From Alphaproteobacteria bacterium casp-alpha2 (lineage in GTDB: Bacteria; Pseudomonadota; Alphaproteobacteria; Rhodospirillales; Casp-alpha2), in contig LFEN01000034.1 of assembly GCA_001510075.1 (NCBI GenBank), forward strand, positions 354 through 64,353: a stretch of 64,000 bases of DNA. Reading direction: 5' to 3'. Below are positions 5,263 to 52,169 of this stretch, piece after piece (position 1 is the stretch's first letter; every line of letters starts with the position of its first letter). Under the pieces are notes generated by a model, which was given only the letters and a program-made list of their open reading frames with translations, did no database searches and was not told the origin of the DNA. The position numbers and the translations under genes are program-made.

Positions 5263-5703
5263 GTGAGTAGTATCAATAGGGAAAGCATTACCCTTGTTAC
5301 CGGGGTTATTGGCGCCGATACGCACATCGTCGGCAACCGGATACTGTCCATGGGCCTGGAGGAAGCCGGCTTCAAGGTCGTGACCTTGGGGGCGTTGACG
5401 CCAGCGGCGGAATTCGTCAAGGCGGCCATCGAAACAGCCGCCGACGGGATCATGGTGTCGTCACTCTATGGCCAGGGGGAACTGGATTGCCGGGGTTTTC
5501 GCGACCTTTGCATCGAAGCCGGCCTGGACGGTATTTTACTCTACATCGGCGGCAGCCTGGTCGTCGGCAAGCAGGAATGGTCCGAGGTCGAAGGGCGCTT
5601 TTTAGGCATGGGGTTTGATCGTGCTTTTGCCAACGCCACCCGTGTCGAGGACGTGGTCGAGGCGCTGGACAAAGATTTCGCAGCGCGGAAAAAGTCCGGT
5701 TAA
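5263..5703 (+). CDS. glmS: Glutamate (methylaspartate) mutase S-subunit homologue, B12-binding
   Basis: [12 protein letters not shown] contains the DxHxxG cobalamin-ligand motif. There is near-colinear similarity to clostridial GlmS/MutS ([27 protein letters not shown]). The start is GTG. Confidence 0.85.
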
Positions 5704-7091
5704 TGAGCGCCGCCCTTCTGATTGATTTTGGCTCGACCTTTACCAAGCTTCGCGCCATCGATTTGGCGGATGGAAATATCATCGGCTCGGGCCAAGGCCC
5801 GTCGACGGTCGAGACCGACGTCACCGAGGGGTTGAGCACCGCGCTCGCAGACCTTGAAGGCCATCTAGGCGCCCTGCCGAATTTCAAACACCGGCTGGCC
5901 TGTTCCAGCGCCGCCGGGGGGCTTGGCATGGTGACGGTCGGGCTGGTCCGGGAGTTGACCGCCGAAGCGGCAAAGCAGGCGGCGCTTGGCGCCGGTGCGA
6001 AGTTGACGGGGGCATTTTCCTACGGCCTGACAAAAGGCGATATCGCCGACATAGAACGCCTGGCCCCGGATATTATTTTATTGGCCGGCGGCACCGATGG
6101 CGGCAATGCAGAGGTGATCCTGGAAAATGCTGCCAAGTTGGCCGCTGCCGGGCTCACCTGTCCGGTGGTCATCGCCGGTAACCGCGAAGCGGCGGAAGAA
6201 GTAGCCGCCTTGCTGGAGGCCGCTGGTTCACCTGTTATCGTCACTGAAAACGTCATGCCGGAATTCGGTGTGCTGAATGTCGAGCCGGCCCGCGCCGCCA
6301 TTCGTCAGGTTTTTATCGACCGTATCGTTCACGCCAAGGGCATCGACAAGGCGGCGGCACTGTTCGACGCGGTGCTGATGCCGACCCCGGCGGCCGTGCT
6401 CGAAGGGGCCAGATTATTGTCGGCCGGGCATGGTGATATCGCCGGACTGGGGCCGCTGGTCGTCGTCGATGTCGGCGGCGCCACCACGGATGTGCATTCC
6501 GTCGCCGACGGTGCGCCGACGAAAGAAGGCGTCATCGCCCACGGCTTGCCGGAACCGCATCTCAAACGGACGGTCGAAGGCGACCTTGGTATGCGAATTA
6601 ACGCTGCCGCCATCGCCGAGGCGGCGGGATTGGAGCAATTGGCCGCTGGCGCCGGGTTGGCGGTTGCCCGTGCCGAAGAAATTCTGCAAATGCTGTCCGC
6701 CGACATAGAACGCCTTCCCGACGGTGAAGACGAACAGCGCTTCGACCAGACCCTGGCCGAAGCGGCCCTGAAAATTGCCATGACCCGTCATGCCGGCTCC
6801 CTTGCCATCGTGCAGACGGTGGCCGGGCCGGTCAGTGTCCAAACCGGCAAGGATTTGGGCCAAATCAAAACCCTGATCGGCACCGGCGGTGTGCTGGCGC
6901 ACGGCAAGAACCCGGCGGCGGCCTTGATGGCGACCCTGGCGGACCCTTTGGTTCCGCAATCGCTCAAGCCCCAGGCGCCGGATATTCGCCTCGACAAAGA
7001 CTATGTGCTTTTTGCCGTCGGCCTGTTGGCGGAACGTGAGCCAGAGGCTGCCTTGACGCTGGGTATCCGCCACATGCATTCTGTCACATGA
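5703..7091 (+). CDS. glmL: GlmL/MutL-type mutase accessory (chaperone-like ATPase) protein
   Basis: [22 protein letters not shown]-terminus and 462-aa length are as in clostridial MutL. The gene sits between the S and E subunits, with TAATG and ATGA overlaps. Confidence 0.8.
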   Translation: MSAALLIDFGSTFTKLRAIDLADGNIIGSGQGPSTVETDVTEGLSTALADLEGHLGALPNFKHRLACSSAAGGLGMVTVGLVRELTAEAAKQAALGAGAKLTGAFSYGLTKGDIADIERLAPDIILLAGGTDGGNAEVILENAAKLAAAGLTCPVVIAGNREAAEEVAALLEAAGSPVIVTENVMPEFGVLNVEPARAAIRQVFIDRIVHAKGIDKAAALFDAVLMPTPAAVLEGARLLSAGHGDIAGLGPLVVVDVGGATTDVHSVADGAPTKEGVIAHGLPEPHLKRTVEGDLGMRINAAAIAEAAGLEQLAAGAGLAVARAEEILQMLSADIERLPDGEDEQRFDQTLAEAALKIAMTRHAGSLAIVQTVAGPVSVQTGKDLGQIKTLIGTGGVLAHGKNPAAALMATLADPLVPQSLKPQAPDIRLDKDYVLFAVGLLAEREPEAALTLGIRHMHSVT

Positions 7092-8575
7092 ACTTAAATT
7101 CTGACGATACACCCATTTCGGCAGCGGCGATCCCGGCGGATGATTTTGCCCTCATGCGCACCGAAAACCTCGCCCGCTGGCCTACCGGGGCGGACGTGGA
7201 CCTGGACGAAGCCGTCGAATTTCACAAATCCTTGCCCCAGGAAAAGCAACTGGGGTGGGTCATGCGCCGGGCGGCGGAAGAAGGCCGCTGCCTGACACAA
7301 CCGCGCGGCGGTTTCGGGACCCTGGAGCTGCAACTGGAACTGATGCGCGCGCTGGATCAGGACGGCATGGCCGACATCGTGCCGACGACCACGGACAGCT
7401 ATACCCGCAACGAACAATGGGAACAGGCGGCCACGGGGATAGAGGAATCCAAGCGCCAGGGTCGTTCCATGCTGAACGGTTTTCCCATGGTCAATTACGG
7501 GCCGAAAGAAGCCCGCAAGCTGATCGAAGCCATCAACAAGCCGGCCATTGTGCTGTCGGGAACGGCGATGCCGCGCTTGACCTGCGAAGTCGGCTTTGCC
7601 GCCGGATTTTCCGGCTATCTCGGTTCCGGCATTGCCTACACCACGTCCTATACCAAGGATACCTCCATCGCCGAGGGCATCCGCAATTATCAATACCTTG
7701 ATCGTCTGGCGGCGCTTTATCAGGAAAAGGGCGTCGAATTACACAGGAGACAGCCCGGTTTTCTTACCGGCACCAATGTGCCGCCCTGCATTGCCATTGC
7801 CGTCGGCGTGTTGGACGCCTTGTTGGCGGCGGGCCAAGGGGTCAAAAACTACGGCCTGGAACTGGCCCAGACCCTGCACCTGATCCAGGACGCCGCGGCG
7901 ATAAAAGTTTGCGGCGAACTGGCGCAGGAATATCTGCTGGCGGCCGGCTTTGAGGATATGTTCACCCCGGTGACATCGTTGCACTGGATGGGCGCGTGGC
8001 CGCAGGATGATGCCCAGTCGGCGGCCCTGGTGTCTTATGGTGGCACACTGGCGGCGGTCGGGGGCGCGGTCAGTGTCACTACTAAAAGCACCCACGAGGC
8101 CTACGGTATCCCGACACCCGCGGCCAACGCCGAAGGGCTGCGCACGACCCGCATGGCGGTCTATCTGGCGCGCCACATCCGCCTCGATGACTTGCCGGAA
8201 TTTAAAGCCGAAGTCGACTTGTTGCGGCGCGAAACCCGCCCCATCATCGACAAGGCCCTGGAAATGGGCGACGGCGACGCTGCCCTGGGCGCCGTCCGGG
8301 CGTTGGAAGCGGGGGCGCTGGATATCCCCTGGTCGCCGAGCCGGTTCGTAAAGTCCCGGGTAATGCCGGCCCGCGACGCCGACGGATACCTTAGAATTTA
8401 TGACCCCGGCGACATGGTTTTTGCCAGTGATGTGGCCGAAATACATACCGAGCGCCTGAAAAAGCGCGCCGAAGTTGAAGGGGTGGCCTTTGATCGCAAT
8501 CTGGCGGTAAAAAGTGTCTATGAAATATCCGAACCGCTGGACAAACTGCTGCCGTTTCCCTGGGCGGCAGAGTAA
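7088..8575 (+). CDS. glmE: Glutamate mutase E-subunit homologue with divergent active-site residues
   Basis: Colinear with C. cochlearium GlmE as I recall it: QPRGG, TDSYTR, GRSMLNGFPMVNYG, LTGTNVPP, AGQGVKN, TKSTHEAYGIPT. See the finding on the substitutions at positions 149 and 171. Confidence 0.85.
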   Translation: MNLNSDDTPISAAAIPADDFALMRTENLARWPTGADVDLDEAVEFHKSLPQEKQLGWVMRRAAEEGRCLTQPRGGFGTLELQLELMRALDQDGMADIVPTTTDSYTRNEQWEQAATGIEESKRQGRSMLNGFPMVNYGPKEARKLIEAINKPAIVLSGTAMPRLTCEVGFAAGFSGYLGSGIAYTTSYTKDTSIAEGIRNYQYLDRLAALYQEKGVELHRRQPGFLTGTNVPPCIAIAVGVLDALLAAGQGVKNYGLELAQTLHLIQDAAAIKVCGELAQEYLLAAGFEDMFTPVTSLHWMGAWPQDDAQSAALVSYGGTLAAVGGAVSVTTKSTHEAYGIPTPAANAEGLRTTRMAVYLARHIRLDDLPEFKAEVDLLRRETRPIIDKALEMGDGDAALGAVRALEAGALDIPWSPSRFVKSRVMPARDADGYLRIYDPGDMVFASDVAEIHTERLKKRAEVEGVAFDRNLAVKSVYEISEPLDKLLPFPWAAE

Positions 8576-8611
8576 CGCTATAATCAATAAAACACATAGG
8601 AAGCCCTTACC

Positions 8612-10036
8612 ATGAGCCAAGCCGCGCCCGCTCCGCAATCCGAGAGCGAATCCGAAATAATCCAAGGTCTGATAGATCGCGCCCGCACGGCGATGAAAGC
8701 GATTGCCGACGCCGATCAAGCCCGTATCGACGAGGCGGTCACCGCCTTGGCATGGTCTATTTACGAGCCCGACCGGGCCAAGGAACTGGCGGAACTCGCC
8801 GTCAGGGATACCGGCCTCGGCAACGTCGAGAGCAAGATCATCAAGAACCAGCGCAAGACCTTCGGTTGTCTGCGCGACCTGATGCGGGTCAAGACCGTCG
8901 GCGTGATCGAGGAAATCCCGGCAAAAGGTCTGGTCAAATACGCCAAACCCGTCGGCGTCGTCGCCGCCGTGTCGCCATCGACCAATCCGGCGGCAACACC
9001 CGTCAACAAGGCGATGATGGCCTTGAAGGGCGGCAACGCGGTGATCATCGCGCCGAGCCCCGCCGGAATGGGGCCGACGACAAAAACCGTCGATTACATG
9101 CGCGCTGAATTGGAAAAAATCGGCCTGCCTGCCGATCTGGTGCAGGTACTGCCCAGTCCGGTCAACAAGGCGCTGACCCAGTCCTTGATGGAAGCCTGTG
9201 ATCTGGTTGTCGTTACCGGATCGCAAAACAATGTGCGCCGGGCCTATTCGTCGGGCACGCCGGCGATTGGCGTCGGCGCCGGCAATGTCTCGGTGATTAT
9301 CGATTCCACGGCAAATCTCAAAGACGCCGCGGAAAAAATCACCATGTCGAAAATTTTCGACAACTCGACATCGTGCTCGTCGGAAAATGCGGTGATTATT
9401 CTGGACGATGTTTATGACGACGCTATCGCGGCGCTCAAAGCTGCGGGCGGATATCTGGCGGATGCGGACGAAAAGCAGAAAATCCAGGATACGCTCTGGG
9501 TTGACGGGCATCTCAACCGCCATGTCATCGCCAAGGATGCCGACGTGCTGGCCAAACAAACCGGCCTTTCCGGCGAGGCGGAAAAGGCTAAATTTTTTAT
9601 GGTCGAGGATGAAAACCCCGGCCCCGGCCATCCTTTTGCCGATGAAAAACTGTCCCTGGTGTTGACGGTCTACCGGGCGTCCGATTTCGCCGACGCCATG
9701 GCCCAGGTCGATGCCATCATGGATGTCTGCGGGCGCGGCCATTCGGTCGGTATCCATACCGGGGACATGGACCATGCCCGCAAACTGGCCGAAGACCTTC
9801 AGGTCGTCCGTGTGCTGGTCAATCAGGCGCACACGTTCGGTAACGGCGGCAGCTTTACCAACGGCCTCGACTTCACCCTGACCATGGGTTGTGGCACCTG
9901 GGCCGGGAATTCCATTTCCGAAAACCTGAACTACAAGATGTTCATCAACACCACCCATCTGGTAACGGAAATCCCCGAGGACAAACCGTCCGAAGAAGAA
10001 TTGTTCGGCGATTACTGGGCGAAATACAGCAAATGA
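8612..10036 (+). CDS. CoA-acylating aldehyde dehydrogenase (AdhE-N / EutE / SauS-type, ALDH family 20-like)
   Basis: Motifs PVGVVAAVSPSTNPAATP, AYSSGTPAIGVGAGN, FDNSTSCSSENA (catalytic Cys) and GCGTWAGNSISENL match the acylating ACDH family. Confidence 0.8.
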   Translation: MSQAAPAPQSESESEIIQGLIDRARTAMKAIADADQARIDEAVTALAWSIYEPDRAKELAELAVRDTGLGNVESKIIKNQRKTFGCLRDLMRVKTVGVIEEIPAKGLVKYAKPVGVVAAVSPSTNPAATPVNKAMMALKGGNAVIIAPSPAGMGPTTKTVDYMRAELEKIGLPADLVQVLPSPVNKALTQSLMEACDLVVVTGSQNNVRRAYSSGTPAIGVGAGNVSVIIDSTANLKDAAEKITMSKIFDNSTSCSSENAVIILDDVYDDAIAALKAAGGYLADADEKQKIQDTLWVDGHLNRHVIAKDADVLAKQTGLSGEAEKAKFFMVEDENPGPGHPFADEKLSLVLTVYRASDFADAMAQVDAIMDVCGRGHSVGIHTGDMDHARKLAEDLQVVRVLVNQAHTFGNGGSFTNGLDFTLTMGCGTWAGNSISENLNYKMFINTTHLVTEIPEDKPSEEELFGDYWAKYSK

Positions 10037-11166
10037 ACTTCGAAGAATACGCGGGCAAGCCGCTATTGAAAGCGGCCGGCATTGCCGTGCCGGACGGAAA
10101 ACTAGCCACCATGTCTGACGAGGCGGCGGACGCCTTTGACGCCATCGGGCCATGTGTCGTCAAGGCGCAGGTGCCGACCGGCAAGCGCGGCAAGGCGGGC
10201 GGCATCAAGATCGCCGACAGCGCCGACGAGGCACGGGCGGCGGCGGAGGCTATCCTCGGCATGGATATCGCCGGCCACACGGTGGCCAGTGTGCTGGTCG
10301 AGGGGCGGTCTGAAATCAGGCGCGAGTATTATGCCGCCGTCATGAACTCCCCCGAGACAAAAGGTCCCATGGTCCTGTTTTCAGCCCTGGGCGGCATGGA
10401 TATCGAGGAAGCCGCGGCCCAGGACGCTGACGCCGTTCGCAGACACCCGGTCGATGTGCGCGACGGCTTTTCGGCGGCCGATGGCGAGCGGATGCTGGAT
10501 GGCCTCGACCTCGACGGCGCGCAAGTGGAGATCGCGGGTATTTTGGCAAAGCTCTATACGGCGTACCGGGAAAACGACGCCGAACTGCTGGAAATAAACC
10601 CTTTGGCGATGACCCACAAAGGCTTGATGGCGCTGGATTGCAAGTTCGTCATGGACGATTCTGCTATCAAGCGTCATCAGGAACTGGCCGCCACCGGCAC
10701 GCCGGAAAGGCTGACCGGGCTGGAATTGCGCGGCGAAGGAGCCGGCATCAAATACATCGAGTTGGACGGCGACGTCGGCGTGCTCGCCAACGGCGCCGGG
10801 CTGACGATGACGACCATGGACGTCGTCCGCCACCATGGCGGCAGGCCGGCAAATTTTTGCGAGATCGGCGGCGCCGCCTATACGAAGGCGCAGGCTGCCC
10901 TGGAAATGGTCCTCGACAAGCCGGGCGTCAAAAGCCTGGTGGTCAATTTCTGCGGCGCGTTTGCGCGCTGTGAAGTGATGATGGAAGGCCTTTTGAACGC
11001 CTGGGATGAAATAAAACCCGACATCCCGGTATTTTTTTCAATCGCCGGCACCGGTGATGAGGAAGCCATCGCCATGCTCAAGGATAGGCTCGGCATTGAC
11101 CCATTGCCCGACATGGACGCCGCCTGCAAGGCCGCCGTCGATGCAGCCAGGGAGGGGTCCAAATGA
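10033..11166 (+). CDS. ADP-forming acid-CoA ligase beta subunit (SucC-like ATP-grasp)
   Basis: ATG at 10033 overlaps the upstream stop (ATGA). MNFEEYAGKPLLKAAGIAVP, VVKAQVPTGKRGKAGGIK and LEINPL are succinyl-CoA-synthetase-beta-like. Confidence 0.8.
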   Translation: MNFEEYAGKPLLKAAGIAVPDGKLATMSDEAADAFDAIGPCVVKAQVPTGKRGKAGGIKIADSADEARAAAEAILGMDIAGHTVASVLVEGRSEIRREYYAAVMNSPETKGPMVLFSALGGMDIEEAAAQDADAVRRHPVDVRDGFSAADGERMLDGLDLDGAQVEIAGILAKLYTAYRENDAELLEINPLAMTHKGLMALDCKFVMDDSAIKRHQELAATGTPERLTGLELRGEGAGIKYIELDGDVGVLANGAGLTMTTMDVVRHHGGRPANFCEIGGAAYTKAQAALEMVLDKPGVKSLVVNFCGAFARCEVMMEGLLNAWDEIKPDIPVFFSIAGTGDEEAIAMLKDRLGIDPLPDMDAACKAAVDAAREGSK

Positions 11167-12038
11167 AGATCGTACGCGGTCATCACCGGGTCCTCATCCA
11201 GGGTATCACCGGCAAGCAGGGCACGTTCTGGACCGAACGCATGCAGGAATACGGCACCAACGTCGTCGGCGGGGTAAACCCTAAAAAAGCCGGCACCACC
11301 CATTGCGGCGTGCCGGTGTTTGCGTCCGCCGCCCTGGCCATGAAAGAAGTCGAATTTGACGTTTCCGTGTTGTTTATTCCACCCCTGGGCGTCAAGGACG
11401 CCGCCCTGGACGCCATCGAGGCCGGGGCCAAGAACCTCTGTATTTTGACCGAACATATCCCCGTGCAGGACGTCATGGTGTTTCTGGCCGCTGCCCAAGA
11501 CAAGGGCACCAGCATCACCGGACCTAACACGGCGGGCTCCGTCACCATCGGCGAATGCTTCACCGGGTTCATGCCGGCCTTTAACGAGCGCATCTTCAAA
11601 AAAGGCGCCGTCGGCGTGATGTCGCGATCGGGTAGCCTGGGCACGCTGATGTGCCAGAACATCGTCTCGGCAGGCTACGGCCAGTCGGCCTTCATCGGTA
11701 TCGGCGGCGACCCCATCATCGGCACGACGACTAGCCAAGCGCTGGAAGCGCTTGATAATTTTGAAGATACCGAGGCGGTGGTGATCGTCGGTGAAATCGG
11801 CGGCGCCATGGAAGAAGACGCTGCCCTTTACGCGAAAACCATGTCCAAACCCGTCATCGCCTTTATCGCCGGTGGTGCCGCCCCGCCGGGCAAGAAGATG
11901 GGCCACGCCGGGGCCATCGTCTTGGGCGACAAGGGAACCTACAAGTCCAAGAAAGAGGCGCTCGAAGGGGCCGGGGTTACGGTGCTCGATACGCCGTCCG
12001 ATGTCGGCAAGGTTCTGAAAGACCGTTTAAAGGCCTGA
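11163..12038 (+). CDS. ADP-forming acid-CoA ligase alpha subunit (SucD-like)
   Basis: VLIQGITGKQGTF (CoA/NDP fold), SRSGSLG and GHAGAIV (phosphohistidine loop) are present. ATGA overlap with the beta subunit. Confidence 0.85.
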   Translation: MKIVRGHHRVLIQGITGKQGTFWTERMQEYGTNVVGGVNPKKAGTTHCGVPVFASAALAMKEVEFDVSVLFIPPLGVKDAALDAIEAGAKNLCILTEHIPVQDVMVFLAAAQDKGTSITGPNTAGSVTIGECFTGFMPAFNERIFKKGAVGVMSRSGSLGTLMCQNIVSAGYGQSAFIGIGGDPIIGTTTSQALEALDNFEDTEAVVIVGEIGGAMEEDAALYAKTMSKPVIAFIAGGAAPPGKKMGHAGAIVLGDKGTYKSKKEALEGAGVTVLDTPSDVGKVLKDRLKA

Positions 12039-13358
12039 AATCAGCACCCAGGCAATGGCCAGTGGTGCGATATACCGGCAAATGATGCGCCACAGTCCCA
12101 CATAGCGGAAACCGTCGCCGATGCCGCCCTGGTTGCCGTCCATGACCTTGTCGAACACGACCCAGCCGACGAACAGGGAAATAAATATCCCGCCTGTCGG
12201 CAGCAGGATGTTCGACGCCAGATAATCCATGGCATCGAAGAAGCCCTTGCCGGCGACGGTGTAATCGTTCCAGATGCCGAGGGACAGGGACGACGGGATG
12301 CCGAGCAGGAAAATAGCAATCCCTGAACTCAACGCTGCTTTAGGCCGGGCGATGCCTTTTTCATCGACCAGATAGGCGACCACCACCTCGATTAGCGAAA
12401 TTGCCGATGTCAGCGCCGCCACCGCCAGAAGAACGAAGAACAAGACGCCGAAAAAAGCGCCGAAGGGAATCTTCGAGAACACGGCGGGCAGGGTAATGAA
12501 CGTCAGCCCCGGCCCCGCGCCGGGGTCGAAACCGAAGGCAAACACGGCAGGCAAAATCATGAACCCGGCCATCACCGCGATCAGGGTATCCAGCGATGTA
12601 ACCCAAAGCGCCGCGCCTGGAAGATTTGTCGTTCTAGCCAGATAAGAGCCGTAGGTGATCATGGTGCCCATGCCCAGTGATAGCGAGAAGAAAGCGTGGC
12701 CGAGGGCGGCGGTGATCATGGCGCCGTCGACCTTGGAAAAATCCGGACTAAGGAAAAAAGCAACGCCCTTGGCGGCACCCGGCAGGGTCAGCGAGCGTAC
12801 GCACAATACTACCAGCAGAATAAACAATACCGGCATCAACACCCGGCACGTACGTTCGATGCCGGTATCGATGCCACGGGCGACGACGGCGATGGTCGCC
12901 AGCATGAACAGGGCGTGGTAGATAATCGGTTCCACCGGGTCACCGATAAACGCCCCGAAAGCAGCCCCCAGCGCTTTTGCGTCCCCGGACGCCATCAACC
13001 CCGTCGCCGATTTGACGGCATAAGCGACGGTCCAGCCGCCGACGACGCTGTAAAATGACAGGATGATAAATCCGGTGAAAACACCCATGACGCCGATGGC
13101 TGTCCATGCGCCGCCCTTCAGGTGCCTGAAGGCGCCGACCGGATTGCGCTTGGTTCTTCGCCCAATGGCGAATTCCGCCAGCATAACGCTGAGCCCGATG
13201 GAGAGGATGAAGCCTAAGTAGATGATCAAAAAAGCGCCGCCGCCGTTTTGGCCGGCGAGATAGGGGAACTTCCAAATATTGCCGAGGCCGACGGCAGAAC
13301 CGGCGGCGGCGAGAATAAACCCTGCCCTGGTGGTGAATTGTCCGCGAACGCCTGACAT
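12027..13358 (-). CDS. Sodium-dependent transporter, neurotransmitter:sodium symporter (NSS/SNF) family
   Basis: The N-terminal signature GFILAAAGSAVGLGNIWKFPYLAGQNGGGAFL is diagnostic of the NSS family. 443 aa, polytopic. Confidence 0.9.
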   Translation of the reverse strand: MSGVRGQFTTRAGFILAAAGSAVGLGNIWKFPYLAGQNGGGAFLIIYLGFILSIGLSVMLAEFAIGRRTKRNPVGAFRHLKGGAWTAIGVMGVFTGFIILSFYSVVGGWTVAYAVKSATGLMASGDAKALGAAFGAFIGDPVEPIIYHALFMLATIAVVARGIDTGIERTCRVLMPVLFILLVVLCVRSLTLPGAAKGVAFFLSPDFSKVDGAMITAALGHAFFSLSLGMGTMITYGSYLARTTNLPGAALWVTSLDTLIAVMAGFMILPAVFAFGFDPGAGPGLTFITLPAVFSKIPFGAFFGVLFFVLLAVAALTSAISLIEVVVAYLVDEKGIARPKAALSSGIAIFLLGIPSSLSLGIWNDYTVAGKGFFDAMDYLASNILLPTGGIFISLFVGWVVFDKVMDGNQGGIGDGFRYVGLWRIICRYIAPLAIAWVLISGL

Positions 13359-13376: not shown

Positions 13377-14129
13377 CTAGAATACCGCCCTTCGGATCAG
13401 GTTTAAACCGATGATCAACAAAATCACCAACATCACCTTGCGGAATGTTTCCTGGTCGATGCGGTCGCGAATGACTTCGCCAATGCGGATGCCGACCATC
13501 CCCGGTACGCAAGCCGCGATGGAAAGCGGGATGATGTCGCCGGTAAATATGCCGTTGCGCCAATAGGCGATGGCCAGGGGGATGGCGAGACAAAACCATG
13601 CCAGCCCGACGGTGCGCACGAAGGCCTCCTTGGGCAGCTTCAGCATGACAAAATACATCATCATCGGCGGCCCCCAGATGGTGGTGATGCCGCCCAGCAA
13701 CCCGCCAAGGGCGCCGGCCATCGGTCCCAGCCATTTTTCCGTTTCAGGCGTGATCGGATGCACCCGAGGTTTGGCCAGATTAAGGGCGGAAAACGTGGCG
13801 ACGATGGCGCCTAAAATAGCAAACAGCACGGCGGTATCGATGATGACGACCAACTCGGCGCCGATGAACAGGCACACCAGGGCAACGACGATCATTAACC
13901 AGAACCGGCTGAGCGGCTGCAACAAGTTTCCCGCCCGCACCGCCTGCCACAGGTTGGTAACCAGGATCGGCGCCACCAAAAGGCCGAGCACGCTCAACGG
14001 CGGCAAAAAGTTCAGCAAGATAGCCATGCTTACGATCGGCAGACCAAGTGCGACAATGCCCTTGACGATGCCGCCGACGATCAGCGCCGCCGAGATGATC
14101 GCCAGCATATCCCATTCGTAGCCGAACAT
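13377..14129 (-). CDS. TauE/SafE-family (DUF81) anion exporter, sulfite-exporter-like
   Basis: 250-aa protein with about 8 TM segments and the internal duplicated Gly-rich helices typical of TauE/SafE. It lies 18 nt upstream of the NSS gene on the same strand. Confidence 0.75.
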   Translation of the reverse strand: MFGYEWDMLAIISAALIVGGIVKGIVALGLPIVSMAILLNFLPPLSVLGLLVAPILVTNLWQAVRAGNLLQPLSRFWLMIVVALVCLFIGAELVVIIDTAVLFAILGAIVATFSALNLAKPRVHPITPETEKWLGPMAGALGGLLGGITTIWGPPMMMYFVMLKLPKEAFVRTVGLAWFCLAIPLAIAYWRNGIFTGDIIPLSIAACVPGMVGIRIGEVIRDRIDQETFRKVMLVILLIIGLNLIRRAVF

Positions 14130-14221: not shown

Positions 14222-14938
14222 ATGGAGGGGGTATTGAAAGTTTCGATCTGGCGCGGCGGCAAGGTTGGCCGCTTCGTTGCCTATGAGGTGCCGAGGCTGG
14301 AAAACCAGACGGTGCTGGATGTCGTCACCTATGTGCAGCGCAAACTGGACCCAAGTTTAAGCTACCGGTTTTCGTGCCGCGTCGGCATGTGCGGGTCCTG
14401 CGCCATGACGGTAAACGGCAAGCCCCGGTGGACGTGTCGCACGCATGTGTCAAAGGTCGCTGTTGGCGGGACGCTGGAAATTGCCCCCTTGGGCAATCTG
14501 GCCGTCATCAAGGATTTGTCCGTAGACATGCGGGTCTTCTTCGACAAGTGGGCCAAGGCCGGCGGCGCCTTCAAGGGCGACAAAACCAGGGACGATGACT
14601 TCGCTCTGATCAAGCCTGCGGACAAACAGCGCCAGAACGCCAACGCCGGTATCGAATGCATCGGTTGCGGGGTCTGTTACGCCGGCTGCGATGTCGTCCG
14701 ATGGAAACCCGATTACCTGGGCCCGGCGGCGCTCAATCGCGCCTGGACGCTGGTCAATGACGCCCGCGATACCCAGGGCCCGGTCCGGCTGCAACTCATC
14801 GCCGGGGAAAACGGCTGTCTCGGATGCCATTCCCAGCAAAGCTGCCAGGAACACTGCCCCAAACATCTGAGCCCGACGGCGTCTATCGCCGGCCTGAAAC
14901 GCGCCGTCAGTGTGGCGGCGCTGAAGGGCCGGTTATGA
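14222..14938 (+). CDS. Succinate dehydrogenase / fumarate reductase iron-sulfur subunit
   Basis: Three Cys clusters: CRVGMCGSCAMTVNGKPRWTC (2Fe-2S), CIGCGVCYAGC (4Fe-4S), CLGCHSQQSCQEHCP (3Fe-4S). Confidence 0.85.
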   Translation: MEGVLKVSIWRGGKVGRFVAYEVPRLENQTVLDVVTYVQRKLDPSLSYRFSCRVGMCGSCAMTVNGKPRWTCRTHVSKVAVGGTLEIAPLGNLAVIKDLSVDMRVFFDKWAKAGGAFKGDKTRDDDFALIKPADKQRQNANAGIECIGCGVCYAGCDVVRWKPDYLGPAALNRAWTLVNDARDTQGPVRLQLIAGENGCLGCHSQQSCQEHCPKHLSPTASIAGLKRAVSVAALKGRL

Positions 14939-15303
14939 ACGCCGATCTCGCCTATGCCGATAAGATGGATAGCCGGTTGTGGCTGATCCAGCGCATCACT
15001 GCGGTTGTGCTGGCCGTTGCCGTTGTTGTCCATCTGGCAACCATCATTGTTGCCGTTCAGGGTGGCCTGTCGGCGGCGGAAATCGTTTCCCGCGTCGGTG
15101 GAAGCTTGGGTTGGGCAATGTTTTATGGTGTGTTCGTGGTTGCCGCCGGTCTCCACGCACCGATCGGATTGCGCACCATTTTACGCGAAATGACGCCGCT
15201 GTCGCCGGGCGCGACCAATGGGCTGATGATAGCGTTTGGCACGGTGCTGATGGGGTTCGGTTTTCGGGCCGTCCTGGCCTTTTACGAGATGGGGGGCGGA
15301 TGA
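14935..15303 (+). CDS. Small hydrophobic membrane-anchor subunit of the FRD/SDH-like complex
   Basis: 122 aa with 3 predicted TM helices. ATGA overlaps at both ends. Assigned by position and hydrophobicity only. Confidence 0.55.
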   Translation: MNADLAYADKMDSRLWLIQRITAVVLAVAVVVHLATIIVAVQGGLSAAEIVSRVGGSLGWAMFYGVFVVAAGLHAPIGLRTILREMTPLSPGATNGLMIAFGTVLMGFGFRAVLAFYEMGGG

Positions 15304-15644
15304 CAATGACAAGTCATAGGAGCCATCCATCCTATTGGGCGTTTGTGCTGCACCGGGTATCGGGGCTGGTGCTGGCGGTGTTTCTGCCCTTTCATTTCAG
15401 CCTGCTGGTTCAGGCTACCGAGTATGCAGTGGGGTTTGACGGCTTCCTGAAATGGTCTGAACAGCCGATGGTGAAACTGGCCGAAACCGGGCTTATTGTA
15501 TTGCTCGCCCTGCACCTGACCGGCGGGGTGCGGCTGCTGGCGCTGGAGTTCCTTGCGTGGCGGGATTGGCAAAAGACCCTGGTTGCCGTTTGCGGGGGCT
15601 TGAGCCTCGCCATCGGGCTTTTGTTTCTGGTCAACGCCGTTTGA
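15300..15644 (+). CDS. Small hydrophobic membrane-anchor subunit (FrdC-like) of the FRD/SDH-like complex
   Basis: 114 aa with 3 TM helices. The N-terminus SYWAFVLHRVSGLVLAVFL resembles the FrdC pattern. Confidence 0.55.
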   Translation: MTMTSHRSHPSYWAFVLHRVSGLVLAVFLPFHFSLLVQATEYAVGFDGFLKWSEQPMVKLAETGLIVLLALHLTGGVRLLALEFLAWRDWQKTLVAVCGGLSLAIGLLFLVNAV

Positions 15645-15678: not shown

Positions 15679-16554
15679 ATGAAGATTGATCTGGAAGCCA
15701 TCGAAGAAACGGCCAAGCTGTTGTATATCCGCGCCCTCAAGGTGCTGCCGGATGACATCAAGGACGGGTTTCAAAGACTCGACGCCTCCGAGACCGACGC
15801 CACCGGCAAATCCATCCTGGCGACGATGATCAAAAATATCGACGTCGCCGAGGACACGGATAACCTGTTGTGCCAGGACACGGGCATTCCCATTTACAAC
15901 GTCACCATCGGGCGCGGCGTCGAAACCGACGGCATCGATCTGAAAGACGCCATCCGCAAAGGCTGTGCGCGCGCGACAACGGAATATCCGCTGCGCTCTT
16001 CCGTCGTTCATCCGGTGACCCGTGTTAACGAACACACGTCGTGCGGCCATCGGGTGCCGGTCATCAACATCGATTTTTCCGATCAGGCGGAAGAGCTGGT
16101 GATTGAAATGATCCCCAAGGGCTCTGGCTCGGAAAACGGCTCGTTCCTGAAAATGTGCATCCCGGCGGAAGGCTTGGGCGGCATCAAGACCTTCGTCATC
16201 GACAAGGTCATGGAGGCCGGCGGCAAGGTCTGCCCGCCGACCATCGTCGGCGTCGGCGTCGGCGGCACGGCGGACCTTTGCTCAAAATTGGCGAAGATCG
16301 CCGCAACGCGGCCCCTGGGGTCTGTTTGCGGCGACCCGGAAGGCGCCAAGCTGGAACAAGAACTGGGCCGGGCCGTCAACAGCCTCGGCATCGGGCCGCA
16401 GGGGCTGGGCGGCGATTCGACGTCTTTTGCGGTGCATGTGGAAATTGCGGCGACGCACATCACCATGAACCCGGTCGCCGTCAACATTCAATGCCACTCC
16501 GCCCGCCGTGCCCGGGCGACGTTTAAACCCGATGGCGTCGAGATTGGATTTTAA
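15679..16554 (+). CDS. Class-I Fe-S hydro-lyase alpha subunit (fumarate hydratase N-terminal domain / tartrate dehydratase TtdA type)
   Basis: 291 aa. Contains CQDTGIP, the Fe-S ligand motif of class-I fumarase/tartrate dehydratase, and is colinear with the N-terminal half of FumA. Confidence 0.85.
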   Translation: MKIDLEAIEETAKLLYIRALKVLPDDIKDGFQRLDASETDATGKSILATMIKNIDVAEDTDNLLCQDTGIPIYNVTIGRGVETDGIDLKDAIRKGCARATTEYPLRSSVVHPVTRVNEHTSCGHRVPVINIDFSDQAEELVIEMIPKGSGSENGSFLKMCIPAEGLGGIKTFVIDKVMEAGGKVCPPTIVGVGVGGTADLCSKLAKIAATRPLGSVCGDPEGAKLEQELGRAVNSLGIGPQGLGGDSTSFAVHVEIAATHITMNPVAVNIQCHSARRARATFKPDGVEIGF

Positions 16555-16555
16555 G

Positions 16556-17167
16556 ATGGCGGATTATAATTTTTCCATGCCGTGTACGGAAGACGACATC
16601 CGCAAACTTCGCATCGGCGATCACGTAACGCTTCAGGACACCTTGTTTGGTATCCGCGATGCGACACAAATCCATATGTTCGACAAAGGCCGGGAAACCC
16701 GACTGGACCTGAACGGCCACGCGGTCATCCACACGGCGCCGAATGTCAAAAAAGTGCCGGTCAGCAATTCCTGTCCGGCGGGCTATCAGTCGATCTGTAT
16801 CGGCACGACAACGTCGGCGCGGATGGAACGCTTCACCCGGCCACTGATGGAACGCAATGGTGTTCGCATCATCATCGGCAAGGGCGGGCTGGGGTCTGAC
16901 AGCGCCGCCGCCTTCAAGGAGCTGGGCGGTGTTTATCTCGCCATTATCGGCGGCACGGCGGCGCTGGAAACCACCTGGATCGACAGGATCCTCGATGCCG
17001 ATCTCGATGACCTCAACCCGGAAAGCCTGTGGCAGTTCGAAATTCATGACTTCGGCCCCCTGCTGGTGGCCATGGACGCTAATGGCGACAGCCTCTATGA
17101 CGCCGTTCGGGACACGGCCGAAGAGAGACGCGCGGCAGCGCTGGCAAGCATGGGCGTCGATACTTGA
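16556..17167 (+). CDS. Class-I Fe-S hydro-lyase beta subunit (FumA C-terminal domain / TtdB type)
   Basis: ATG lies 1 nt after the alpha-subunit stop. Contains GDHVTLQDTLFGIRDATQ and IIGKGG, which are beta-subunit motifs. Confidence 0.85.
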   Translation: MADYNFSMPCTEDDIRKLRIGDHVTLQDTLFGIRDATQIHMFDKGRETRLDLNGHAVIHTAPNVKKVPVSNSCPAGYQSICIGTTTSARMERFTRPLMERNGVRIIIGKGGLGSDSAAAFKELGGVYLAIIGGTAALETTWIDRILDADLDDLNPESLWQFEIHDFGPLLVAMDANGDSLYDAVRDTAEERRAAALASMGVDT

Positions 17168-18894
17168 GCACATTAGAGAGCATTGAGACCGATATCCTGA
17201 TCCTGGGCTCGGGCGGCGCCGGGCTGTTTGCGGCGCTGCATGCGTCGAACGCGGCGCCGGACCTGTCGATAACCGTCGCCGTCAAAGGATTGCTGGGCAA
17301 AAGCGGCTGCACGCGCATGGTCCAAGGCGGCTATAACGTCGCCCTGTCACCGGATGATTCCCTGGAACGGCATTTCATGGATACCATCGAGGGCGGCAAA
17401 TGGTTGAACCGCCAAGATCTCGCCTGGGCGCTGGTTGTCGGCGCGCAGGAACGCATCCGCGAATTGGAAAACGAGCTCGGCTGTTTCTTCGACCGCAACG
17501 AAGACGGCACCGTGCACCAAAAAGCCTTTGCCGGGCAGACCTTTGATCGCACCGTTCACAAAGGCGATTTGACCGGGATCGAGATCATCAGCCGCCTCGC
17601 CGAACAGGTGTGGTCGCGGGGGTTGGGGCGGCTGGAAGATCACCGCGCCGTCGAGATGATCCCGGCGAAAGACGGTTCCGGCCTGGCCGGCGTGTTGATG
17701 ATCGATATCCGTAGCGGCGGCTTTCTGTTCGTTCGCGCCAAGGCGGTGCTGCTGGCGACCGGCGGCGGGCCGACCATGTACCGGTTTCACACGCCGTCGG
17801 GAGAAAAGACCTGCGACGGCATGGCCATGGCATTGCGCGCCGGATTGTCGCTCAGGGATATGGAGATGGTGCAGTTCCACCCGACGGGGTTGCTGGCCGG
17901 GACCGATACGCGCATGACCGGCACCGTATTGGAGGAAGGCTTGCGCGGACACGGGGCCTATTTGCTCGACGGCAATGGCGAGCGGTTCATGGACCGTTAT
18001 GACGAGCGCGCCGAACGAGCCACGCGCGACATCGTCAGCCGCGCCATGTTCGAGGAAATGCGCACCGGCAAGGTCGGGCCGCTGGGGGGTTTGTACCTTT
18101 CGACAGCGCACCTGGACGAAGCCGACATCCGGCGCCACTTCCCCGGTATGGTCGAACGCTGCGCTGATTGCGGGTTTGATCTCGCCGGCGACAAGGTCGA
18201 GGTCGTGCCGACGGCGCATTACATGATGGGCGGCGTCGAGTTCGAAGCCGATTGCGGAACCGCGCTGGGCGGCTTGTTCGTTGCCGGCGAGGATACCGGC
18301 GGCGTGCACGGCGCCAACCGGCTGGGCGGCAACGGCGTCGCCAACTCCACGGTTTTTGGCGGCATCGCTGGCGATACAATGGGCCGATGGGTGCCGAAAG
18401 AAGGGGAATTGCGCGAGCCAGATGAAAACGCCCTCGACGCGGCCATCGCCCTTTGCCGGACGCCATTTGGCAAACCACCCGGTGATCTGGAAGCGGTGCG
18501 CGAGAAGCTCGCGACCATCATGTGGGACGATGTCGGCATTATCCGCGACAAAGCCTCGCTGGATCGCGCCGAAGGCGCGTTGCAGGACCTGGAAGCGGAA
18601 CTGGACAATATCGGCGTTGCCGATGACGACCTCGCCTATAACCTGACCTGGCACGACTGGATGAACCTGAAAAACCTGATTTTGGTATCGCGCGCCATTA
18701 CCGCGTCGGCAGCCGTGCGCGAAGATTCCAGGGGCGCGCATTACCGGTCCGATTTTCCGGCGGCGAGTGCGCTGGAAACATCGGCTTTTACCCGCGTTGT
18801 GATGGAAAATGGTATACTGGAAACATCCACCCGGCCGGTGGAATTCTCCCGTGTCAGGCCGGGGGAAACGTTGCTGGGTAAAAATTCCGGATAG
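17164..18894 (+). CDS. FRD/SDH-family flavoprotein subunit lacking the covalent-FAD histidine
   Basis: Contains ILILGSGGAG (FAD), QFHPTG, RATRD, HYMMGG and GANRLGGN. The TTG start overlaps the upstream stop (TTGA). See the finding on KSGCTRMVQGG. Confidence 0.85.
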   Translation: MSTLESIETDILILGSGGAGLFAALHASNAAPDLSITVAVKGLLGKSGCTRMVQGGYNVALSPDDSLERHFMDTIEGGKWLNRQDLAWALVVGAQERIRELENELGCFFDRNEDGTVHQKAFAGQTFDRTVHKGDLTGIEIISRLAEQVWSRGLGRLEDHRAVEMIPAKDGSGLAGVLMIDIRSGGFLFVRAKAVLLATGGGPTMYRFHTPSGEKTCDGMAMALRAGLSLRDMEMVQFHPTGLLAGTDTRMTGTVLEEGLRGHGAYLLDGNGERFMDRYDERAERATRDIVSRAMFEEMRTGKVGPLGGLYLSTAHLDEADIRRHFPGMVERCADCGFDLAGDKVEVVPTAHYMMGGVEFEADCGTALGGLFVAGEDTGGVHGANRLGGNGVANSTVFGGIAGDTMGRWVPKEGELREPDENALDAAIALCRTPFGKPPGDLEAVREKLATIMWDDVGIIRDKASLDRAEGALQDLEAELDNIGVADDDLAYNLTWHDWMNLKNLILVSRAITASAAVREDSRGAHYRSDFPAASALETSAFTRVVMENGILETSTRPVEFSRVRPGETLLGKNSG

Positions 18895-18913: not shown

Positions 18914-19804
18914 CTAAGACACCAAGGCAGCTCCTTCCTGGCCGTAATAGAAGCCGTTGGAAAACGGAGCAAAATCGACCAGCCTGTCGAGCCGCCGTTG
19001 GCCCTCGTCGGCAGTTTCGGTGCCATCTAGAACGTCCCGAAACACTTCCGCCACCTTGGCCATATCGATCATATGGGGCCACAGCCGGAAAGCGTCAATC
19101 CCCATGGCCTGCAACTCTTCCAGTTCGCTGATAAGGTTGAGCACCGAATGAGACAGCGTCTGAGGGCCGTTGACGGAGAGGAAACTTTTACCGTCAAGGG
19201 TCTGGACCTCCATGCCGTTAGGGTCTTGGATGCAGACGAATTGGCACCCGTCCTTGTGCAGTCCGTGGGAACGGGCATGGTAGCAGCGGGCTGAAATCGC
19301 CAACGGTGCGCGCCCAAAAGCTTGTACTTCTAATTCCCGGGTGGCGAAACTTGCCAGCGCCGACAAGGATCGGGACGGTAATTCCCAAGGAAGCGATACC
19401 CGTCTGGCGCCCTGATTTTCCAGGAATTCGAGCGAACCTTCGTTGTAGACATTGACGAAGGGGCCGATGACGTGATCGCGGCCCGCCAGCAAGGAAACGG
19501 CGGCCATGTCGTTGGCCTCGATGGTTAGTCCTCCGTTGCCGGCAAGGGCCCTGACCGAGTCCAGTTCCCGCTCGCTCATGATCAACGCCAGGGTCGAAAG
19601 GACTACCTCCTTGCCGCCGCGTTGGAGCCGCTCGATGACTTCCGGGAGAAAGGGCTCGAAAAAAGGCGTCCGTTTTGAGCAAACCACCTCGCCCAGGTAA
19701 ACGGTGTCGAACGGCGCTTCGTCGGCGATGTGGAAATAGAAATCGCGCTTGACCTCGGCATCCCAGTTAAACAGCACGGGACCAAGGGAAAGTTTTGCCG
19801 TCAT
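18914..19804 (-). CDS. ubiV: U32-family protein UbiV (O2-independent ubiquinone biosynthesis)
   Basis: 296 aa. LSLGPVLFNW...VYLGEVVCSKR is YhbV/UbiV-like, and the gene lies directly downstream of a UbiU-like U32 gene. Confidence 0.7.
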   Translation of the reverse strand: MTAKLSLGPVLFNWDAEVKRDFYFHIADEAPFDTVYLGEVVCSKRTPFFEPFLPEVIERLQRGGKEVVLSTLALIMSERELDSVRALAGNGGLTIEANDMAAVSLLAGRDHVIGPFVNVYNEGSLEFLENQGARRVSLPWELPSRSLSALASFATRELEVQAFGRAPLAISARCYHARSHGLHKDGCQFVCIQDPNGMEVQTLDGKSFLSVNGPQTLSHSVLNLISELEELQAMGIDAFRLWPHMIDMAKVAEVFRDVLDGTETADEGQRRLDRLVDFAPFSNGFYYGQEGAALVS

Positions 19805-19815
19805 GTTACCTCCGC

Positions 19816-20808
19816 TCAGTGCCAGGTTTTGTCGTAGGCGCCGGTGGTGTCCCGCTGACCTTCGGTCACACTATCCAGGCACCCGCTAACCACCGGCTCG
19901 CCCTGGGCCGTGGCATCGATTGCCTGGCGGAATGCCGACACCACACGGCTGACGTAGGCGCGACCGCGTTGGCGTCCTTCGATTTTCAGGGCGCTGACCC
20001 CGGCCGCGGCCAGTTCCGAAAGCATCGCCATGACATTGAGCGAGGCGGGTTCCTCGAAGAGATAGGAGGCGTCGCCTCGCGCCACGAAACGGCCCTTGCA
20101 CAGGGTCGGGTAACCGGCTGCTTCGTTCTCGGAGAATTCGTTAAGGGTGAAATCGCCGAGCCTGGAAACTAGCTTGCCGTCCCGTTTTTCGTAGCGGACA
20201 TGGCTTGCCGGAGAACACACGCCATCGGTATTTGGCGACCGACCGGTTACATAAGAGGAAAGAGAACACCGCCCCTCTGCCATCACACACATGCCGCCGA
20301 AGGCAAAAACCTCCGTTTCCACCGGAATCCGGGCGTTGAGGTCGGCGATTTCCTTGACCGTCAACACCCTGGGCAACACCACCCGCTTTACCCCGAAGGC
20401 ACGGTGGTAAAAATTGATGGCTTCAGCGTTGGAAGCCGATGCCTGGACCGACAAGTGACGACGCAGGCCGGGCTGCGTTTGCAGGGCGTAGTCTAGCAGC
20501 CCGATATCAGCGAGGATGACGGCATCCGCAGTCAATGCCGCCGCGTCGTCGATGGCCCGGCGCCAGGGGCCGGGGTTGCCGGCTTCGGCATACGTGTTGA
20601 TGGCGATGAAAACCCCGCATCCGCGTTGCCGGGCGTAGGCGATGCCTTCCTCCATTTCTCTGCGGCTGAAATTAAGGCCGGGAAAATTCCGGGCGTTGGT
20701 TTCGTCGGCGAAACCGGCATAAACCACGTCGGCGCCCGCATCAACCGCCGCCTTCAGGGCCGCCGGGTTGCCCGCAGGGCAGATGAGCTCCAGTCGCGAT
20801 GCCGTCAT
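19816..20808 (-). CDS. ubiU: U32-family protein UbiU (O2-independent ubiquinone biosynthesis)
   Basis: 330 aa. LELICPAGNPAALKAAVDAGADVVYAG and NTYAE are peptidase-U32 N-terminal motifs, and the order is ubiT-ubiU-ubiV. Confidence 0.7.
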   Translation of the reverse strand: MTASRLELICPAGNPAALKAAVDAGADVVYAGFADETNARNFPGLNFSRREMEEGIAYARQRGCGVFIAINTYAEAGNPGPWRRAIDDAAALTADAVILADIGLLDYALQTQPGLRRHLSVQASASNAEAINFYHRAFGVKRVVLPRVLTVKEIADLNARIPVETEVFAFGGMCVMAEGRCSLSSYVTGRSPNTDGVCSPASHVRYEKRDGKLVSRLGDFTLNEFSENEAAGYPTLCKGRFVARGDASYLFEEPASLNVMAMLSELAAAGVSALKIEGRQRGRAYVSRVVSAFRQAIDATAQGEPVVSGCLDSVTEGQRDTTGAYDKTWH

Positions 20809-50934: not shown

Positions 50935-50939
50935 ATTGC

Positions 50940-52166: not shown

Positions 52167-52169
52167 GGT

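Follow-up and report, generated by a model that had tools for sequence, protein, structure and literature searches.

Glutamate mutase-like proteins with a rebuilt substrate pocket form a clade often encoded among sulfonate-catabolic genes

Glutamate mutase (GlmES or MutSE, EC 5.4.99.1), described from Clostridium cochlearium and Clostridium tetanomorphum, is an adenosylcobalamin (AdoCbl)-dependent enzyme accompanied by the reactivating chaperone GlmL or MutL. In a crystallographic analysis of 2022, the glycyl fragment of its substrate is gripped by R66, R149 and E171 and the acrylate fragment by R100 and Y177, while Y181 lies near the product methylene radical (PMC10947579). The subject of this report is a homologue of the catalytic E subunit encoded in a 64,000-nucleotide stretch of DNA from Alphaproteobacteria bacterium casp-alpha2 (contig LFEN01000034.1; hereafter the window), in which R149 and E171 are both replaced by Leu. 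In the clostridial enzyme, variants of E171 and of the arginine claw (R66, R100 and R149) are strongly impaired. To our knowledge, only a handful of AdoCbl mutase reactions is known, and glutamate mutase is treated as a family with a single function.

The genes around this homologue recall another group of described systems. In the sulfoacetate pathway of Cupriavidus necator and Bilophila wadsworthia, SauCD (or SauT), SauS and Xsc work with the SauXYZ tripartite tricarboxylate (TTT) importer, and SauCD, for which no active-site signature is given, retains 20% activity on 3-sulfopropanoate (PMC10413351). In Enterococcus gilvus, HpfX is a 3-sulfopropionaldehyde dehydrogenase acting on 3-sulfopropanoyl-CoA and HpfYZ is a 3-sulfopropionate-CoA ligase; bacterial breakdown of 3-sulfopropanoate is unreported there, save a thesis-level route via sulfoacrylate to sulfolactate, reported for Roseovarius nubinhibens (PMC11489063). 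Neither of these two papers mentions a mutase, and a literature search returned nothing that links glutamate (methylaspartate) mutase or AdoCbl with sulfoacetate, sulfoacetaldehyde, Xsc or 3-sulfopropanoate.

The window has the S-L-E gene unit of the clostridial systems (Table 1). The glmS stop overlaps the glmL start by 1 nt, and glmL overlaps glmE by 4 nt, so that the three genes are translationally coupled. The GlmS-like subunit carries the base-off/His-on B12-binding motif DxHxxG (D19-x-H21-x-x-G24, in GADTHIVG). With this motif, the fold, the adenosyl-contact residues and the chaperone all in place, the three genes (5263-8575) encode an intact AdoCbl-dependent mutase system, which very probably uses the same radical fragmentation-recombination logic as glutamate mutase. 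The unit continues into sauS, sauC and sauD on the same strand, likewise coupled. Neighbouring genes in either trio overlap by 1-4 nt, and no terminator-like site was found on the + strand in the 36 nt that separate glmE from sauS. The initial annotation had spoken of an aldehyde dehydrogenase (ALDH) and a ligase; these can now be named as a SauS equivalog and a SucCD/SauCD-like ADP-forming ligase. The latter has the domains of its family and scores under the succinate- and malate-CoA ligase cutoffs. An 804-aa antisense open reading frame (ORF) over glmE and sauS (7739-10153, -) shows no coding signal in the G+C content of third codon positions (GC3) and is a high-G+C artefact that misleads longest-ORF calling.

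A phmmer search of PDB sequences aligned residues 18-480 of the GlmE-like protein with residues 11-473 of C. cochlearium GlmE (1cb7_B) in a single gap-free stretch (E=6.1e-115; 38% identity between the two proteins), and only glutamate mutase epsilon subunits were matched among the PDB chains. The numbering offset is constant, residue n of the window protein being GlmE residue n-7. R66 and R100 are kept as R73 (in QPR) and R107 (in DSYTR), and Y177 and Y181 as Y184 and Y188. Also kept are N130 of the window protein and K326 and E330 (K333 and E337), the adenosyl-ribose contacts. Three residues are replaced, R149 by L156 (CTG, 7553-7555), H150 by S157 (TCG, 7556-7558) and E171 by L178 (CTC, 7619-7621). 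The reference sequence and register on which the initial annotation relied turned out to be right. The four retained residues that it named stand in the gap-free alignment, and its three substitutions are borne out by counting along the alignment and by the DNA codons. Its list was incomplete, since it overlooked E214 to R (R221), N170 to Y (Y177), G173 to S (S180), P180 to S (S187) and the aromatic enlargements F297 to W (W304) and F408 to W (W415).

A structural model, which the same annotation had proposed, was made with AlphaFold2 for the E subunit alone (26 input sequences, pLDDT 77, pTM 0.84). Foldseek matched it to the GlmE chains 6h9e_B and 1cb7_B with TM-scores of 0.89/0.91 over 476 columns, and the next matches were other B12 TIM-barrel enzymes at about 0.5. 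Since the model matches the GlmE crystal chains so well, the residue equivalences hold in three-dimensional topology. In the model, barrel strands terminate at or just before R73, L156, L178 and R221, and R221 is the final residue of its strand, which comes directly after that of L178. This arrangement would place R221 in the same kind of active-site position as the other three.

The altered pocket is not peculiar to this organism. A word-indexed search of 5.8 billion proteins gave 1576 matches, of which the best 120, sharing 73-97% identity with the window protein, were used. The source names, wherever present among the matches, are all methylaspartate mutase. A genome scan with one genome per species added 80 loci (69-89% identity) from Alpha-, Beta- and Gammaproteobacteria, Eremiobacterota and Acidobacteria, the cultured hosts including Azospirillum oleiclasticum, Azospirillum sp. 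ST 5-10 and Pelomicrobium. The clade occurs in aerobic or facultative Proteobacteria and in other phyla, in contrast to the enzyme of the glutamate-fermenting clostridia. In an alignment of 201 clade sequences, combining the 120 database proteins and the 80 genome loci, Leu stands at the position of R149 in 201/201 and at that of E171 in 200/201, which leaves the claw incomplete and removes the amino-group contact; at position 157, 200/201 have S or T. The residues R73, R107, Y184 and Y188 do not vary, 201/201 have K333 and E337, and S180, S187, Y177 (window numbering), W304 and W415 are also fixed. R221 occurs in 201/201, whereas its counterpart E214 occurs in 32/32 canonical representatives, defined here by the heptad R66 R100 R149 H150 E171 Y177 Y181. 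Positions fixed differently in the clade and in these 32 are R149L, E171L, G173S, P180S, W194Y, E214R, F216P, L223N, F297W and F408W (GlmE numbering).

The initial annotation had asked whether the L149/L171 sequences form a distinct clade, and they do. When 1.84 billion cluster representatives were searched exhaustively with HMMER, identity within the clade was at least 60.5% (median 73%) and that to any outsider at most 42%, the nearest outsider being canonical clostridial GlmE. The L156/L178 pattern is neither a chance nor a private variant, and the pocket state is fixed by selection. As for the wider family, the canonical heptad is found in 32 of the 117 full-length 50%-identity representatives of PF06368 nearest to the window protein (P0121-P0270); the rest show dozens of differing residue combinations, and many are fusions of 630-690 aa. 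Glutamate mutases may make up only a minority of the 'methylaspartate mutase E' family.

What the pocket retains is its acrylate-holding half (R100, Y177 and Y181, GlmE numbering) together with R66, while the contacts specific for the CH(NH3+)COO- group are replaced, the two Glu residues on the ammonium side having become Leu and Arg. Hydroxyls are gained in the pocket region (S/T157, Y177, S180 and S187 of the window protein), and the aromatics are bulkier. Presumably the carboxylate of a propanoate-type backbone is still bound in the pocket. We infer a non-amino migrating group that is anionic and sits in a different place, and that is probably smaller than that of glutamate or richer in oxygen. 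R221, from its place in the model, would contact the substrate, and two anionic groups are probably still bound. It was initially suggested that the pocket has lost one carboxylate contact and may take a mono-anionic acid. Both suggestions are probably wrong, because an Arg is gained at the E214 position in all 201 sequences along with the Ser and Tyr hydroxyls; the pocket seems remade to take an anion that is bulkier or sits elsewhere, with no reduction in charge. A non-amino substrate, suggested at the same time, remains plausible.

The protein is very likely not a glutamate mutase, because its glycyl contacts are lost and this loss is fixed in a deep clade, because no methylaspartase was found among the scanned ORFs, and because its neighbours are sulfonate-catabolic genes; on the same grounds, the earlier proposal of a substrate other than L-glutamate is well supported. 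Structurally it belongs to the GlmE family, yet it lacks the full arginine claw, E171 and a methylaspartase context. The public annotation 'methylaspartate mutase' is probably wrong, and since the protein passes the equivalog threshold for 'methylaspartate mutase subunit E' (TIGR01503, 446 bits against a cutoff of 390; PF06368, 459 bits), the whole clade is probably misnamed in databases. That it is a glutamate (methylaspartate) mutase after all, with other residues compensating for R149 and E171, would agree with this score, with the methylaspartate-mutase models that GlmS and GlmL also pass, with canonical GlmE as nearest relative outside the clade and with the uniform source names, but it is very improbable given that 200-201 of the 201 sequences have other residues in place of both glycyl-specific contacts and of E214, that no methylaspartase model is matched among the window ORFs scanned, that the enolase-superfamily partner found elsewhere matches MR_MLE_C only, and that the context is one of sulfonate and not amino-acid catabolism.

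For the gene neighbourhoods, the GC3-scored ORFs of the 80 loci were clustered, cluster representatives were annotated, and neighbours were counted within 10 kb, with the loci of at least 15 kb (n=35) counted also as a separate set of large loci. In glutamate mutase systems the mutase genes are followed by methylaspartate ammonia-lyase; the clade has instead an MR/MLE-type enolase-superfamily gene (45/80 loci; 26/35 large) and sulfonate-catabolic genes. The MR/MLE gene usually lies directly upstream of glmS, and the closest solved relatives of its product are dipeptide epimerases; by Pfam it matches MR_MLE_C only and shows no methylaspartase identity. A TTT transporter follows in frequency (41/80; 18/35), then a SauS-like ALDH (27/80; 14/35), a Qor-like NADPH reductase (26/80; 14/35), a SucCD-like ligase (18/80; 12/35), TauE (16/80; 8/35), a succinate dehydrogenase (SDH)-like complex (14/80; 9/35) and Xsc (7/80; 2/35), and an old yellow enzyme (OYE)-type ene-reductase occurs in 3 loci. 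The co-occurrence of the clade with the ALDH and ligase genes is thus frequent but not universal.

Some of these arrangements are compact. In one Azospirillum locus (L074), the MR/MLE gene, glmSLE, the Qor-like gene, xsc, tctB, tctA and sauS form one same-strand array, and another (L072) has an array of the same type without xsc, ending in sauS-sauCD and a molybdoenzyme. The latter, a 995-aa molybdopterin oxidoreductase (L072 18467-21454, +), scores best with thiosulfate reductase PhsA (226 bits, below cutoff) and could be a SoeA-type sulfite dehydrogenase. In three loci (L081, on a 4.1-Mb contig, L085 and L086), iclR-glmSLE is followed by TauE and MR/MLE, and a second TauE lies within the SDH-like operon between sdhD and sdhA. 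In a Burkholderiales metagenome-assembled genome (L077 11522-13784, -), glmE is followed by an Ldh_2 gene (ComC-like sulfolactate dehydrogenase family) and a GD_AH gene (altronate dehydratase/SuyB family), which suggests a sulfolactate end-module that replaces SauS and Xsc. The mutase genes are co-operonic with sulfonate-catabolic genes in many, not all, lineages.

Compared with the sulfoacetate clusters, the window shares the SauS equivalog, a SucCD-type ADP-forming ligase, Xsc, a Pta-family phosphotransacylase and TauE, and related loci share the TTT transporter. The mutase, MR/MLE and Qor-like genes are undescribed in those clusters and are interleaved with pathway genes here. With HpfX and HpfYZ the locus shares the acylating ALDH and SucCD-like ligase families, which act there on the sulfonate isostere of succinate; it differs in that the ALDH scores as SauS, that Thr and 'AFA' replace His160 and GIN of the Enterococcus ligase, and that no B12 enzyme takes part there. 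The SDH-like and fumarase-like genes fit the oxidation via sulfoacrylate proposed for Roseovarius nubinhibens.

On this evidence, the enzyme probably acts on a sulfonate. The best overall explanation, which we hold in a judgement falling just short of evenly balanced, is a neofunctionalised AdoCbl mutase, derived from glutamate mutase, that acts on a short sulfonated acid with a propanoate backbone. The accessory enzymes are sulfonate counterparts of succinate enzymes, namely a SucCD-like ligase, a SauS resembling acylating succinate-semialdehyde dehydrogenase, an SDH-like complex and a fumarase-like hydratase; 3-sulfopropanoate, the sulfonate isostere of succinate, is proposed as the substrate for this reason. 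A possible reaction, put forward tentatively, is a 1,2-sulfonate shift converting 3-sulfopropanoate into 2-sulfopropanoate. The 5'-deoxyadenosyl radical would abstract a hydrogen from C2, and beta-scission of the C3-S bond would leave acrylate, bound to the enzyme by R107/Y184, and a sulfite radical anion held by R73/R221 and the new Ser and Tyr hydroxyls; re-addition of the radical at C2 and return of the hydrogen would give the product. Beta-sulfonyl radicals fragment readily, and 3-sulfopropanoate arises from the anaerobic fermentation of 2,3-dihydroxypropane-1-sulfonate and sulfoquinovose and from homotaurine metabolism.

Oxygen-independent desulfonation by Xsc needs a sulfonate alpha to the carbonyl (a 2-sulfo-aldehyde), and the shift would therefore make a C3 sulfonate digestible by the ligase, the SauS-like reductase and Xsc. 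These would yield propionyl phosphate and sulfite without oxygen, with TauE exporting the sulfite. The SDH-like complex, together with the hydratase, would turn 3-sulfopropanoate, sulfoacrylate and sulfolactate into one another. With 3-sulfolactate as the alternative substrate, the shift would give the pyruvate-bisulfite adduct directly, which would break down spontaneously. The 2-sulfo acid would be racemised by the MR/MLE partner, in the role that methylmalonyl-CoA epimerase plays alongside methylmalonyl-CoA mutase. The likeness to that pair is one of function only: a B12 mutase connects a linear succinate-type acid with its 2-branched isomer, and an epimerase works at the acidic 2-position. 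Methylmalonyl-CoA mutase has a catalytic subunit of another family, takes a CoA ester and moves a thioester carbon instead of a heteroatom group. The glycyl-radical lyases IslA/IseG and HpsG also handle, independently of oxygen, a C-S bond adjoining a substrate radical, but they use a glycyl radical and not AdoCbl, are strictly anaerobic and catalyze elimination instead of isomerisation.

Several points weigh against the reading as a sulfopropanoate mutase. SauS scores as a true sulfoacetaldehyde dehydrogenase equivalog, and because SauCD, SauS, Xsc and TTT already complete the known sulfoacetate pathway with no need of a mutase, the mutase may serve a separate pathway sharing the operon. The ligase signature fits neither succinyl-CoA synthetase (SCS) nor the 3-sulfopropanoate ligase HpfYZ: the SucD-like subunit has Thr (in SRSGSLGT, invariant in 13 relatives) at the position of SCS Tyr167 and HpfZ His160, and the SucC-like subunit has 'GAFA' at the position of SCS 'GGIV', where HpfY has GIN. 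The mutase also looks superfluous if 3-sulfopropanoate is already broken down by the SDH-like route. By tblastn, the MR/MLE and Qor-like partners are absent from the 64-kb window. SauS, Xsc and TauE are all unseen within 10 kb in 18 of the 35 large loci, so the linkage of mutase and sulfonate genes is frequent and not universal; one of these 18 (L077) does carry the ComC-like and SuyB-like genes, and CoA-transferase, BKACE or AMP-ligase/enoyl-CoA hydratase genes occur instead in some others. We know of no natural occurrence of 2-sulfopropanoate as a metabolite and of no enzyme-catalysed 1,2-sulfonate shift.

The enzyme might instead be a carbon-skeleton mutase on a longer sulfonated acid, closely parallel to the glutamate pathway, converting 2-sulfoglutarate into 3-methyl-2-sulfosuccinate or 4-sulfobutanoate into 3-sulfoisobutyrate. 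The sulfonate would then end up beta to a carboxylate with an alpha-hydrogen, and MR/MLE would eliminate sulfite as methylaspartase, also of the enolase superfamily, eliminates ammonia. The resulting enoate (mesaconate or methacrylate) would be taken by the fumarase-like hydratase, by the SDH- or fumarate reductase (FRD)-like complex, or by the Qor-like and OYE ene-reductases. With E171L and E214R, an ammonium site formed by two Glu residues becomes an Arg site, which is what an exchange of NH3+ for SO3- would call for, and R66 is kept for a carboxylate on the migrating carbon. MR/MLE is the most constant partner, often with TauE directly beside the mutase, ene-reductases recur, and TTT transporters of the tricarboxylate type would suit a trianion. 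Class I fumarases are known to act as mesaconases (PMC4682846). This account is nevertheless unlikely. It leaves the co-operonic SauS, SauCD and Xsc without a role, a CH2-SO3 radical is poorly stabilised for fragmentation-recombination, and neither of the two proposed substrates is known as a natural product. In addition, N170Y, G173S, F297W and F408W enlarge side chains, which suggests a smaller and not an equal-sized substrate, and the nearest solved relatives of MR/MLE are epimerases, not lyases.

About half of the large loci lack a sulfonate marker within 10 kb, and this would be explained if the substrate were a non-sulfonated, non-amino C5 dicarboxylate, the reaction being glutarate to methylsuccinate, 2-methyleneglutarate to 3-methylitaconate or 2-hydroxyglutarate to 3-methylmalate. 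From that product, the SDH-like complex and hydratase would lead on to mesaconate and citramalate, and the sulfonate genes would be regulatory or historical neighbours. Leu at positions 149 and 171 would fit CH2 or =CH2, the pair of SDH-like complex and class I fumarase-like hydratase is what a route from methylsuccinate through mesaconate to citramalate needs, and CoA-transferase, BKACE, AMP-ligase or enoyl-CoA hydratase genes are present in some loci. The window also has, upstream, a gene of the PrpF family, which we take to be that of methylitaconate isomerase, but this gene sits in a separate TcuA/PrpD-like unit found in the closest relatives only. Arg221 and the gain of hydroxyls favour an extra or bulkier anion over a hydrocarbon group. 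The genes argue in the same direction, with the mutase genes in a tight same-strand array with sauS-sauCD in the window, Xsc inside the array of L074, TauE embedded in the SDH-like operon of L081, L085 and L086, and ComC-like and SuyB-like genes beside glmE in L077. A dicarboxylate mutase thus seems improbable.

Downstream of sauD, the window continues with transporter genes and the SDH-like operon (Table 1). The SdhA/FrdA-like flavoprotein is a dedicated paralog, since no curated cutoff is reached, and the SDH-like complex and hydratase are a candidate 3-sulfopropanoate dehydrogenase and sulfoacrylate hydratase. Housekeeping enzymes of the tricarboxylic acid cycle had been considered for these genes and were rejected on account of the sub-cutoff flavoprotein and of the embedded TauE of the L081, L085 and L086 operons. 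The pair of xsc and pta lies about 8 kb beyond them.

Table 1. Features of the mutase locus and of associated genes in the window
Feature	Position	Strand	Remarks
GlmS-like B12-binding (sigma) subunit, 146 aa	5263..5703	+	NF002612 188 bits (cutoff 110), PF02310
GlmL/MutL-like reactivating chaperone, 462 aa	5703..7091	+	PF13941 534 bits; NF040745 580 bits (cutoff 475)
GlmE-like catalytic subunit, 495 aa	7088..8575	+	PF06368, TIGR01503, gap-free GlmE alignment
GlmE-like residues 149-182, INKPAIVLSGTAMPRLTCEVGFAAGFSGYLGSGI	7532..7633	+	contains L156, S157, Y177, L178
Codon of R221 (AGA)	7748..7750	+	clade-invariant Arg in place of canonical invariant E214
SauS equivalog, CoA-acylating sulfoacetaldehyde dehydrogenase, 474 aa	8612..10036	+	NF047625 790.6 bits (cutoff 600)
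SucC-like beta subunit, ADP-forming acid-CoA ligase (SauC/HpfY-like), 377 aa	10033..11166	+	4-nt overlaps with sauS and sauD
SucD-like alpha subunit (SauD/HpfZ-like), 291 aa	11163..12038	+	motif SRSGSLGT
SNF-family sodium:solute symporter, candidate importer	12027..13358	-	TTT or major facilitator superfamily (MFS) transporters instead in other lineages
TauE/SafE-family sulfite/sulfonate transporter	13377..14129	-	PF01925 97.6 bits
SdhB-like Fe-S subunit and two Sdh_cyt membrane subunits, divergent SDH/FRD-like complex	14222..15644	+	
Two-subunit Fe-S hydratase, class I fumarase/tartrate dehydratase-type	15679..17167	+	alpha NF004885 306 bits (cutoff 276); PF05681, PF05683
SdhA/FrdA-like flavoprotein	17164..18894	+	under every curated SDH/FRD cutoff
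Pta/Ptb-family phosphotransacylase, after xsc	25607-26536	-	NF006045 348 bits
Xsc, sulfoacetaldehyde acetyltransferase	26543-28318	-	NF005713 1020 bits; TIGR03457 950 bits

There are some further genes of note in the window. The separate unit that holds the PrpF-family gene (1-1645, +, extending upstream in L082 519-4558) has three genes, for an MmgE/PrpD-family protein, a TcuA equivalog (FAD tricarballylate dehydrogenase, 525 bits, cutoff 369) and a PrpF-family isomerase under the PrpF cutoff; as noted above, its conservation is limited to the closest relatives. Right after the SDH-like operon lie UbiV and UbiU equivalogs of oxygen-independent ubiquinone biosynthesis (18914-20808, -), adjoined by an SCP2-domain protein, which hints at a microoxic or anaerobic lifestyle. 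Two further genes (38050-39204, +, and 40617-41888, +) encode an acyl-CoA dehydrogenase and a nearby CaiB-family CoA-transferase. The dehydrogenase shows a sub-threshold likeness to acryloyl-CoA reductase and to 3-sulfinopropanoyl-CoA desulfinase (211 bits, cutoff 600); a link of this pair to C3 organosulfur or acrylate metabolism is possible. An 825-aa fusion of an FAD oxidoreductase with a GcvT-type aminomethyltransferase (dimethylglycine/sarcosine-dehydrogenase-like) and a GlcDEF glycolate oxidase operon (31200-33677, +, and 49447-53471, +) are ordinary catabolic genes of marine alphaproteobacteria.

Collectively, a clade spread over several phyla has a rebuilt glutamate mutase pocket wired into sulfonate catabolism, and its function is probably new. 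Much of PF06368 may likewise be functionally unexplored, given how few of its representatives carry the canonical substrate residues. The enzyme could possibly be the first AdoCbl enzyme to move a sulfonate, by a radical 1,2 C-S shift on 3-sulfopropanoate (or 3-sulfolactate), although this is a tentative proposal. If true, the sulfonate shift would be a reaction class new to B12 enzymology and would point to a widespread, unrecognised branch of the organosulfur cycle, in which the 2-sulfo isomer is desulfonated by Xsc-type or spontaneous chemistry without oxygen. Such an oxygen-independent B12 route would fill a gap in C3-sulfonate degradation and tie sulfonate turnover to the availability of cobalamin.

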